NCBI RefSeq assembly: GCF_054482525.1 | Contig: NZ_CM137006.1 | Direction: 5' to 3' (one strand) | Length of the DNA: 64,000 nucleotides | Shown: piece after piece, positions 1,387 through 4,307 of the stretch | Layout: every line of letters begins with the position of its first letter | Position numbering within the stretch: the first letter of the stretch is position 1 | Notes under the pieces: model-generated | Database searches by the model: none | What the model saw: the letters and a program-made list of their open reading frames with translations, nothing else | What the model was told of the DNA's origin: nothing | Program-made: the position numbers and the translations under genes

Positions 1387-1797
1387 GCTTGTCCCCGTTT
1401 TTTCTTCCTTTGCTAATAATAATGTCTTTTTCGCTCCGTCATCATAACGAAAATCAAACCGCTCAGGTAAAGAAGTGAAAATATTTTGAGTTAATTCTTA
1501 AGCTATGATACAAATCAGGCGTGTTCAACTACCGAGGACAATTATCATCCGCGATGACGAGAAGCAACACTGCGGATAATTGTAATATTATGGACAATTT
1601 GTTCAGGACGTTATTTTCTACATTTACCCATCTTCGTACCTCATCCACTATCTTGCTCGTAGGTGAGCAGCACTGGCGCAACGCGCTTTAGTCCTTTCTT
1701 CTGCCAAAGCTTGCGCCATGCGCGGGGCTTGACCACTTTACTTTGGTTTCGCTGAATTAAGCGAAAATTAAAATAATTCTCTTGCAGGAGAAGGACA

Positions 1798-2163
1798 ATG
1801 TATATTTATTGGATTTTATTAGGTCTGGCTATTGCTACAGAAATTACCGGTACGCTGTCTATGAAATGGGCGAGCGTCAGTGAGGGAAATGGCGGCTTTA
1901 TTTTAATGCTGGTGATGATTTCTCTGTCGTATATATTTCTCTCTTTCGCCGTTAAAAAGATCGCCTTAGGCGTGGCTTATGCGCTGTGGGAAGGTATCGG
2001 TATTTTATTTATTACCTTGTTTAGCGTTTTGTTATTCGACGAAAGTTTATCGCTGATGAAAATTGCCGGGTTAACCACCCTGGTCGCCGGGATTGTATTG
2101 ATCAAATCAGGTACTCGTAAAGCGCGTAAACCTGAACTGGAGGTGAACCATGGCGCAGTTTGA
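1798..2163 (+). CDS. mdtJ: spermidine export protein MdtJ (SMR family)
   Basis: 121-aa four-helix small membrane protein; RBS caggagaaggac upstream of ATG; overlaps mdtI start by 14 nt. Confidence 0.9.
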
Positions 2164-2479
2164 ATGGGTTCACGCCGCCTGGCTGGCATTGGCAATCGTG
2201 CTGGAAATCGTTGCTAACGTCTTTTTGAAATTTTCTGACGGCTTTCGTCGCAAAATATTTGGCTTGCTCTCTCTGGCGGCGGTGCTGGCTGCCTTTAGTG
2301 CGCTTTCTCAGGCCGTTAAAGGGATCGACTTGTCTGTCGCTTATGCATTGTGGGGCGGATTTGGTATTGCCGCCACGTTAGCCGCAGGTTGGATCTTGTT
2401 TGGTCAACGGTTAAATCGTAAAGGCTGGATTGGCCTGGTCTTGCTGTTGGCTGGAATGATCATGGTGAAACTTGCCTGA
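2150..2479 (+). CDS. mdtI: spermidine export protein MdtI (SMR family)
   Basis: 109-aa SMR-like membrane ORF translationally coupled to mdtJ. Confidence 0.9.
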
Positions 2480-2517: not shown

Positions 2518-3339
2518 TTATTTTTGCGACAGTTGATCCAGCCTGTCGCGAAAACCGGTAACAGAAATGGCCCGGTTATCGGCGCGCCAGCGATCTTTCG
2601 CGGCAGGAGCCGAACTTTGCACCCCAATTAATTGCCAGCCGTCATCGGTATGCAACATCAGAGGCGAACCGCTGTCACCCGGCAAGGTATCGCACTGATG
2701 TGACATCACCGACGTTTGCGCCCAGCCAGTCACTTCACAGTTTTGATGACTGTACAACGTATCGAGATGATCTTCAGGGTATCCCGCCTGAGTCACTTTA
2801 CGACCTGCCTCTTTTAATGCGGCGGTAAGCGCGGCTTTATCTCCCTCAAATAACGGCAACGGTGTAATGCCAGAAGGGGGATTACGTAGCACAATCAAAC
2901 CGAAGTCCCAGGGCGCAGCTGCGGGAGGTACAATCCAGCCATCCCCATCTGCTTTTAACCGCTTTCCCAGTGTCGGATCAACGCGGCCTTCTATGTCGTG
3001 GATCTCATAGCGCCAAAGACCTTTATTTGACACGAAACGCAGCGCTACCGCTTTATCGGCTTTACCCTTTGGCGGCGTCAATAAACAGTGTCCTGCCGTT
3101 AATGCCAGATTGGGTGCAATCAGCGTCGCCGTACATAAATTGCCGCTGGCCGTTTCCAGTTGGCCAACCGCATCCCACGGTGATTGGGTCGTGTCATTCA
3201 CTGGCACACGATCATCATGACCAAAAAACAGGGTGCTGACCTCATCGTTTGCCGATTTGGCAACGTCTGGTTTATCTGCAAACACAAAAGCAGACGTCAA
3301 ACTAATTGCACCCAACACTACAGCAATGGTTGTACGCAT
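2518..3339 (-). CDS. ydgD: secreted trypsin-like serine protease YdgD
   Basis: 273 aa with N-terminal signal peptide; catalytic motifs LTAGHC and GDSGSP visible in translation. Confidence 0.85.
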
Positions 3340-3438
3340 ATCACACTCTGGTGGGTAATTATGATTATTAAAAGCAAACCCTCATAAATACTATAGACGG
3401 GACGGGATGAAAGTGGGAGTAAAATCAGATAACTACGA

Positions 3439-3522
3439 TCAGGAAAGATAAAAACGGGCGGCAATCAGTGCGCATAAAATAAGGATGATAAGAATGAACT
3501 CAAAGCGATAACGGCCCACCAT
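3439..3522 (-). CDS. ydgU: 27-aa small hydrophobic protein (YdgU-like), MVGRYRFEFILIILILCALIAARFYLS
   Basis: ATG preceded by GGAGGG Shine-Dalgarno at correct spacing, TGA stop; single TM-like segment; below ORF-track size cutoff; name recalled from K-12 small-protein set, not verified. Confidence 0.55.
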   Translation of the reverse strand: MVGRYRFEFILIILILCALIAARFYLS

Positions 3523-3540
3523 ACTACCCTCCGCTAAAGG

Positions 3541-3596
3541 CGGTGCTAAACGTTACCTGCTTAGCACCGTAATTTTCAGGCGCGAGGGGGCGCGCC
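3541..3596 (-). terminator. two GC-rich stem-loops immediately downstream of asr
   Basis: inverted repeats ggcgcg/cgcgcc (3579-3596) and cggtgctaa/ttagcaccg (3541-3569); no clean U-tract. Confidence 0.35.
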
Positions 3597-3614
3597 AGCG
3601 TTACTGTTGAAAAC

Positions 3615-3923
3615 TTACGCTGCGGGTTGTGCAGCAGGTTTTGCCGGTTGCTGATGGCTGTGTTTCTTGGCGTGTTTCTTCGCTGCCTGCGCTTTTTGTT
3701 CAGGAGCTTTCTGTTCAGCTTTCGCATTTTTATGATGCTTTTTAGCCGCCTGCGCTTTCTGGGCAGGTGCTGCTTTATGCTGTTTTTTATGATGTGTGGT
3801 TTTCGCAGGCGCTGCTTTGGTGGTCGTCGCAGTCGGAGCAGGTGTGGTCACAGTCTCTGCAGCAAAGGCAGCAGAAGACAGACCCATAGCAGCGGCAACA
3901 ACCAGAGCTAATACTTTTTTCAT
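3615..3923 (-). CDS. asr: acid shock protein Asr (102 aa; Ala/Lys/Gln-rich periplasmic protein)
   Basis: low-complexity [13 protein letters not shown] repeats and signal peptide; start placed at MKKVLALVV (an in-frame ATG 27 nt upstream also exists). Confidence 0.88.
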
Positions 3924-4307
3924 TGTCATACCCTCAATTTGTTTTTTCATTTAACCCCACTGCGGGGCCGTTGAAATAACTATATCCCTGGGAATGGCAG
4001 ACTTCCGTGAGTGGTTGGTTTCAGCGTGTAACGATATGTACAAACGCTGAATAAATTACAGCATTGATAATAACGTATTGTGACTTAAGGAAAATTTAGC
4101 TACCAATAATAGTAGTCTTGATCGGGTTAACTATTTTACTACTTACAAAGCGGTAGAATAACTGCGCATCAGTAATAAATGACACACAGCAAAATGAATC
4201 CGTTTATTTGGGTACTTATAATCCTGATGACGCTAGATGCGCTGCGGGAATTGGCTGGCGCTTCGTCTATTTTAGGATGGCTATTAACGTTGGTTTGAGC
4301 AGGCAAT

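Follow-up and report, generated by a model that had tools for sequence, protein, structure and literature searches.

Does the 27-codon open reading frame (ORF) that lies on the minus strand between asr and ydgD encode a protein, and if so, which protein and with what function? The frame is located in a stretch of 64,000 nucleotides from RefSeq contig NZ_CM137006.1, the whole of which is termed the window here. A total of 62 ORFs of at least 20 amino acids overlap the surrounding 3.5-kb stretch, so that a length of 27 codons is by itself not above chance and the gene call has to be based on other evidence. It is the combination of a Shine–Dalgarno sequence, conservation between species and the pattern of codon-position diversity and pN/pS that lifts this ORF above chance expectation. 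The ORF is very probably the ydgU gene of Escherichia coli, now called samT, acting as the second gene of the asr–samT operon and encoding a 27-residue single-pass inner-membrane peptide that damps RstB–RstA.

The ORF occupies positions 3439..3522 on the minus strand, begins with ATG and ends with TGA, and encodes the peptide MVGRYRFEFILIILILCALIAARFYLS. It is preceded by the Shine–Dalgarno sequence GGAGGG (3527..3532, minus strand), separated from the start codon by the 4-nt spacer TAGT. A GGAG core is retained upstream of the start codon in nearly all the orthologous loci. On the 5′ side is asr (3615..3923, minus strand), which encodes an acid-shock periplasmic protein and is the first gene of the asr–samT operon (PMC13425233). 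The asr stop codon TAA (3615..3617) is separated from the ATG of ydgU by 92 nt. On the 3′ side the start codon of ydgD is located 99 nt downstream of the ydgU stop codon. The conserved downstream neighbour ydgD (2518..3339, minus strand), on which the comparative analysis was anchored, encodes a trypsin-like serine peptidase of the periplasm. The most hydrophobic 15-residue stretch of the ydgU peptide comprises residues 7–21, with a mean Kyte–Doolittle value of 3.06, and the GRAVY of the whole peptide is 1.6. The stretch is bordered by basic residues at both ends, which fits a single transmembrane helix. A preliminary description of the window had reported a hydrophobic 27-codon ORF at 3439..3522 between ydgD and asr, with a strong GGAGGG Shine–Dalgarno sequence, one predicted transmembrane helix and a distance of around 90 nt from asr. 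The frame, coordinates and neighbours were confirmed, and the remaining features agree with the values given above.

The peptide is identical to YdgU of E. coli K-12 (MVGRYRFEFILIILILCALITARFYLS; b4601, YP_001165320.1) at 26 of its 27 residues, the sole difference being T21A. In K-12 MG1655 ydgU is annotated at the matching position, between asr (b1597) and ydgD (b1598), and the locus in the window is 99% identical to that of K-12. The length, the Shine–Dalgarno sequence, the flanking genes (asr upstream and ydgD downstream) and the spacer sequences are common to the two; they differ in that K-12 has T21 where the window has A21, a conservative replacement. Of 5426 complete E. coli genomes, 5418 contain the 401-nt region around the ORF at ≥95% identity, and strain SCU-102 matches it at 100%. 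The window is thus E. coli, and the ORF is the ydgU gene of K-12 in another strain of that species. No observation speaks against this assignment.

Profile searches lead to the same assignment. The peptide scores 70.3 bits with the NCBIfam equivalog NF052476 (‘small membrane protein YdgU’), for which the cutoff is 24, residues 1–27 aligning with profile positions 1–27. With NF011341 (PRK14758) it scores 74.5 bits, the cutoff being 66. No Pfam family was matched by the peptide. The conserved family residues R4, E8, C17, Y5, F7 and L11 are all present, together with the basic N-terminus M-x-x-R-Y-x-F-E and the single hydrophobic helix with its cysteine. The family synteny is also found, with asr, ydgU and ydgD in that order and all on the minus strand. 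The preliminary description had considered the ORF consistent with K-12 YdgU, and had proposed a direct comparison; the identity of 26 residues out of 27, the shared position between asr and ydgD and the NF052476 score bear this out.

The gene is not new. PMC13425233 credits Hemm et al. (2008) with first identifying ydgU, which has been part of the K-12 annotation since then. The same 2026 paper in Nucleic Acids Research renamed it samT. The ORF, its identity and the idea of its co-transcription with asr are therefore correct but already known, with a function published in 2026. Recovery of ydgU from the sequence alone, with the correct operon context, serves as a positive control for the scan. 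The locus also reveals a gap in RefSeq annotation. Its naming is inconsistent across E. coli genomes, being either ‘small membrane protein YdgU’ or ‘hypothetical protein’, and the exact allele of the window (WP_000233090.1) is only a ‘hypothetical protein’ in the RefSeq entry for SCU-102, the strain identical to the window.

The conservation of the ORF was analysed in 80 loci from 80 species-level genomes of Enterobacteriaceae and Erwiniaceae. These were collected using the YdgD protein as query, and the sampled genera include Escherichia, Citrobacter, Kosakonia, Kluyvera, Buttiauxella, Cedecea, Erwinia, Pantoea and Mixta, among others. Because the loci were chosen by ydgD, the sample is unbiased toward the small ORF. 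In 78 of the 80 loci a homologous ORF of 25–29 codons is found on the ydgD strand, upstream of that gene, an adjacency that is partly built in since the sample was anchored on ydgD. The gap between ydgU and ydgD is 95–129 nt in 75 of these 78 loci, and 224, 751 and 765 nt in the others. The start codon is ATG in 77 of the 78 homologues, a GGAG-type Shine–Dalgarno sequence precedes nearly all of them, and asr is found upstream in 75. Failure of the frame to be conserved in related genomes had been named in the preliminary description as grounds for rejecting the ORF; with the frame kept in 78 of 80 loci the ORF is not refuted.

The substitutions are distributed as in coding sequence. For codons 4–25 of the 71 distinct sequences the nucleotide diversity at codon positions 1, 2 and 3 is 0.33, 0.15 and 0.56 respectively. 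The pooled pN/pS for the same 71 sequences is 0.32 in the annotated frame; the two alternative frames give 0.97 and 1.60. R4, E8 and C17 are invariant among the 71. Y5, F7 and L11 are each found in 70, F24 in 68 and I15 in 67. Position 21 is A in 49 sequences and T in 22, so that the A21 allele of the window carries the majority residue. Such a pattern marks a gene that codes for protein and is subject to purifying selection. The three invariant residues provide targets for mutagenesis, a modest addition to what is known of SamT.

The exceptions are few. In Intestinirhabdus alba (locus L011, 2800..2900) asr and ydgD are intact, and a ydgU-like copy keeps its Shine–Dalgarno sequence; it has ACG in place of ATG, E8 is changed to K and the conserved cysteine is lost. 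This copy appears to have decayed. The Tenebrionibacter locus has neither asr nor the ydgU ORF. In Franconibacter (loci L020 and L022) and Buttiauxella warmboldiae (L043) ydgU adjoins ydgD and asr is absent from the locus, from which it follows that dependence on the asr promoter is not universal. The locus of Mangrovibacter yixingensis (L062) contains a second copy of asr, placed between ydgU and ydgD.

Expression of the gene has been studied in K-12 under both acid and magnesium stress. A ribosome-profiling study of acid stress placed ydgU among the genes with the strongest induction at pH 4.4 (log2 fold change 9.22 by Ribo-seq and 12.39 for RNA); it was unchanged at pH 5.8, and the study assigned it to one transcription unit with asr (PMC10746267). 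Lack of a Ribo-seq signal was the other observation named beforehand as telling against the ORF; the strong translation of ydgU in the published profiles leaves it standing. In a study of small proteins in Mg2+ starvation the PhoQ-dependent induction of ydgU originated in the region upstream of asr, with negligible reporter activity from the region immediately upstream of ydgU (PMC11429745). A GFP–YdgU fusion was located at the cell periphery, and growth was affected neither by deletion nor by overexpression of ydgU (PMC11429745). Northern blots showed a joint, RstA-dependent rise of asr and samT RNA at acid pH (PMC13425233). The suggestion in the preliminary description that the ORF might be co-transcribed with asr under acid control is thus upheld by these blots and by the reporters of PMC11429745. 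A promoter between asr and the ORF had been put forward there as a point to check; the reporter activity from this region is negligible, as noted, and no sigma-70-like promoter was found in a consensus scan of 3200..4200.

The rstAB genes lie outside the window. In K-12 they are located ∼10 kb past ydgD, which is beyond the low-coordinate end of the window. Upstream of asr there is a candidate RstA box, TACATATCGTTACA (4027..4040, minus strand), that exactly matches the RstA-box consensus TACATNTNGTTACA. This is the sole match in the 64-kb window; at least one match occurs in 28 of 100 shuffled sequences, so that taken alone the box is weak evidence.

The function of SamT has been studied by genetics and interaction assays. 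Complementation with samT alone, as the K-12 allele, restores negative feedback on the asr promoter (Pasr) at pH 5, and the feedback is lost in rstA D52A, rstA D52E and rstB mutants (PMC13425233). By bacterial two-hybrid analysis the SamT–RstB signal is strong and comparable to that of MgrB–PhoQ; the fusions were overproduced, and weaker signals were also obtained with PhoQ and EnvZ (PMC13425233). Translation of SamT, its induction by acid and by low Mg2+ from the asr promoter, its localisation to the membrane, its interaction with RstB and feedback have each been demonstrated for the K-12 allele, the experiments of PMC13425233, PMC11429745 and PMC10746267 having been performed with T21 where the window has A21. 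The A21 allele presumably behaves in the same manner; for the window itself, the Shine–Dalgarno sequence and the purifying selection in frame lend indirect support to translation.

Taking the sequence together with the published data, the following mechanism is the best supported for the window. Phosphorylated RstA would activate the asr promoter at acid pH, and low Mg2+ would act at the same place via control of rstAB by PhoQP. The transcript would then run beyond asr into samT, which requires RNA polymerase to pass a hairpin resembling a terminator, with its end 18 nt from the start codon of samT. SamT would be translated from its own GGAGGG Shine–Dalgarno sequence and inserted in the inner membrane. 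There it would bind RstB and lower the phosphorylation-dependent activity of RstA, so that at acid pH transcription of the operon that encodes it is held back by negative feedback of the MgrB/PhoQ type.

The hairpin lies in the asr–samT spacer. It is a GC-rich structure of 12 bp, CGGUGCUAAGC...GUUUAGCACCG (3541..3569, minus strand), with a folding free energy of −15.6 kcal/mol and a z-score of −4.4; none of 200 shuffled sequences folds as well. It is followed by the weak U-tract CCUUUAGC (3533..3540, minus strand), directly before the samT Shine–Dalgarno sequence. A hairpin ending 16–22 nt before the ydgU ATG was detected in 64 of the 78 related loci. The stem sequences differ between genera and the geometry is kept. 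Several Enterobacteriaceae have the stem CGGCGCU...AGCGCCG, and in Erwiniaceae and Buttiauxella the stem ACACCCGG...CCGGGUGU is found, followed by UUUCUUU. The run of T following the hairpin is much clearer in most other genera, and is degenerate in E. coli. RNAalifold found no more than a weak consensus structure (−6.3 kcal/mol) among the 78 upstream regions; since MAFFT failed to align the two types of hairpin in register, detection was performed on each sequence separately. The detector undercounts T-tails because the stems were extended into A–U pairs. The hairpin had been missed by the promoter and terminator scan because the T-run of E. coli is too weak for the rule that was applied.

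From its form and position the hairpin at 3541..3569 looks like an intrinsic terminator of asr, in which case samT would be expressed only by read-through. Partial termination at this point could set the ratio of Asr to SamT, that is of a positive to a negative modulator, perhaps in a condition-dependent manner. If the terminator reading is true, the degraded U-tract of Escherichia would mean more read-through. The main text of PMC13425233 contains no discussion of a terminator.

The spacer contains a second short hairpin, GGCGCG-CCCCCU-CGCGCC (3579..3596, minus strand), and in the minimum free energy fold of the E. coli sequence its C-rich loop can instead be paired with the Shine–Dalgarno sequence. 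Sequestration of the Shine–Dalgarno sequence by this loop was considered and set aside, since the hairpin is not clearly conserved outside Escherichia and folding of the whole asr–ydgU spacer gives a z-score of only −1.85.

In the 99-nt spacer on the other side, between samT and ydgD, folding reveals no stable RNA structure (z +1.26). It contains a conserved non-coding block, CTGATTTTACTCCCACTTT-N14-TATAGT (3390..3428, minus strand), which is a candidate for the ydgD promoter with a regulator site. Within the block, CTCCC and GTCTATAGT show ≥95% invariance over 69 different ydgU–ydgD spacers from Enterobacteriaceae and Erwiniaceae. The block is probably the promoter of ydgD, comprising a −10 element and a C at position −13, together with an upstream site for a regulator. 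It has no recognisable −35 element. Sites for CpxR, BaeR and PhoP were sought by eye using consensus sequences; the matches in the motif upstream of ydgD were partial and unconvincing. The translation efficiency of ydgD is raised at pH 4.4 (log2 2.16), and ydgD is reported in one study to contribute to acid resistance (PMC13339887).

The conserved elements on both sides of ydgU, together with the 62 ORFs of at least 20 amino acids in 3.5 kb, are what might be cited in favour of a chance open frame in the 3′ UTR of asr, in which the conservation would be that of the asr terminator and the ydgD promoter and no protein would be made. Such elements do not account for a diversity at third codon positions (0.56) that far exceeds that at second positions (0.15), or for a pN/pS of 0.32 that is confined to the annotated frame. 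The ATG, the Shine–Dalgarno sequence and the length of 25–29 codons are moreover kept in 78 of 80 species, and translation is evident from both Ribo-seq (PMC10746267) and the tagged protein (PMC11429745). The probability of a chance frame is negligible, and the idea is effectively already refuted.

A protein having been accepted, its main role could alternatively be tied to YdgD, which it might, for instance, anchor to the membrane or modulate, with the binding of RstB being secondary or an effect of overexpression. ydgU adjoins ydgD in 78 of the 80 loci, at a tight spacing of mostly 95–122 nt, and does so even in the three species whose locus has no asr; no terminator-like structure separates the two genes in the window, and the two-hybrid assay also showed non-cognate kinases as weaker interactors (PMC13425233). 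The adjacency is, however, partly a product of sampling by ydgD, and the conserved promoter-like motif that lies between the genes points to separate transcription of ydgD. Furthermore, samT alone restores feedback with ydgD in its normal state, the effect requires phosphotransfer between RstB and RstA (PMC13425233), and no experiment is known to connect SamT with YdgD. A principal role with YdgD is therefore very unlikely, and SamT is best regarded as a feedback peptide of RstB–RstA encoded in the asr operon.

What the analysis adds to published work is modest, and comprises the conserved hairpin abutting the samT ribosome binding site, together with the linkage of samT to ydgD and the promoter-like motif between them. 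Tentatively, and with the balance of probability on the other side, the hairpin and U-tract may form a tuned or regulated partial terminator that sets the Asr:SamT ratio, and YdgD may separately belong to the same acid and envelope module. It is the tight linkage of samT and ydgD, together with the near-invariant motif, that could place YdgD in the module. In the published work that was found neither a regulated asr–samT terminator nor membership of YdgD in the module is addressed.

One further small ORF was observed elsewhere in the window, and another small gene is predicted there. Between ynfM and asr lies a hydrophobic ORF of 39 amino acids, MTHSKMNPFIWVLIILMTLDALRELAGASSILGWLLTLV (4179..4298, plus strand). 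Its score with NCBIfam NF033695 (‘KPN_01571 family protein’) is 63.3 bits, the cutoff being 35, and as the alignment begins at M6 the true start may be at 4194. This ORF is annotated by RefSeq in SCU-102, and the identical K-12 sequence is unannotated in NC_000913.3. Homologues were found in 11 related loci as well as in K-12 and SCU-102. In K-12 the small protein gene mdtU (b4777) is annotated upstream of mdtJ. The mdtJI genes of the window are at 1798..2479, and estimation from the K-12 coordinates indicates that mdtU should be located at about 1590..1690 on the plus strand.

Two known systems may be compared with asr–samT. The ugtS–ugtL operon of Salmonella, in which UgtS counteracts the activation of PhoQ by UgtL, similarly brings a positive and a negative modulator of its own two-component system together in one operon. 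The two operons differ in that UgtS is an antagonist of UgtL, whereas neither Asr nor SamT depends on the other for its action (PMC13425233). The second comparison is with MgrB, the 47-residue inner-membrane feedback inhibitor of the sensor kinase PhoQ, and it was also made by the authors of PMC13425233 themselves. Both are small single-pass membrane peptides encoded by a gene that is activated by a two-component system, and each binds the kinase of that system and limits its signalling. SamT differs in being 20 residues shorter and almost devoid of a periplasmic tail, in having RstB as its target, and in being encoded behind another gene in an operon, whereas MgrB is encoded by a single gene. 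The MgrB family is defined by homology that includes a periplasmic region with conserved cysteines, and SamT ends five residues after its hydrophobic stretch. BLASTP of SamT against MgrB gave no alignment at E ≤ 100. Given this absence of sequence similarity, SamT is a functional analogue of MgrB rather than a member of its family.
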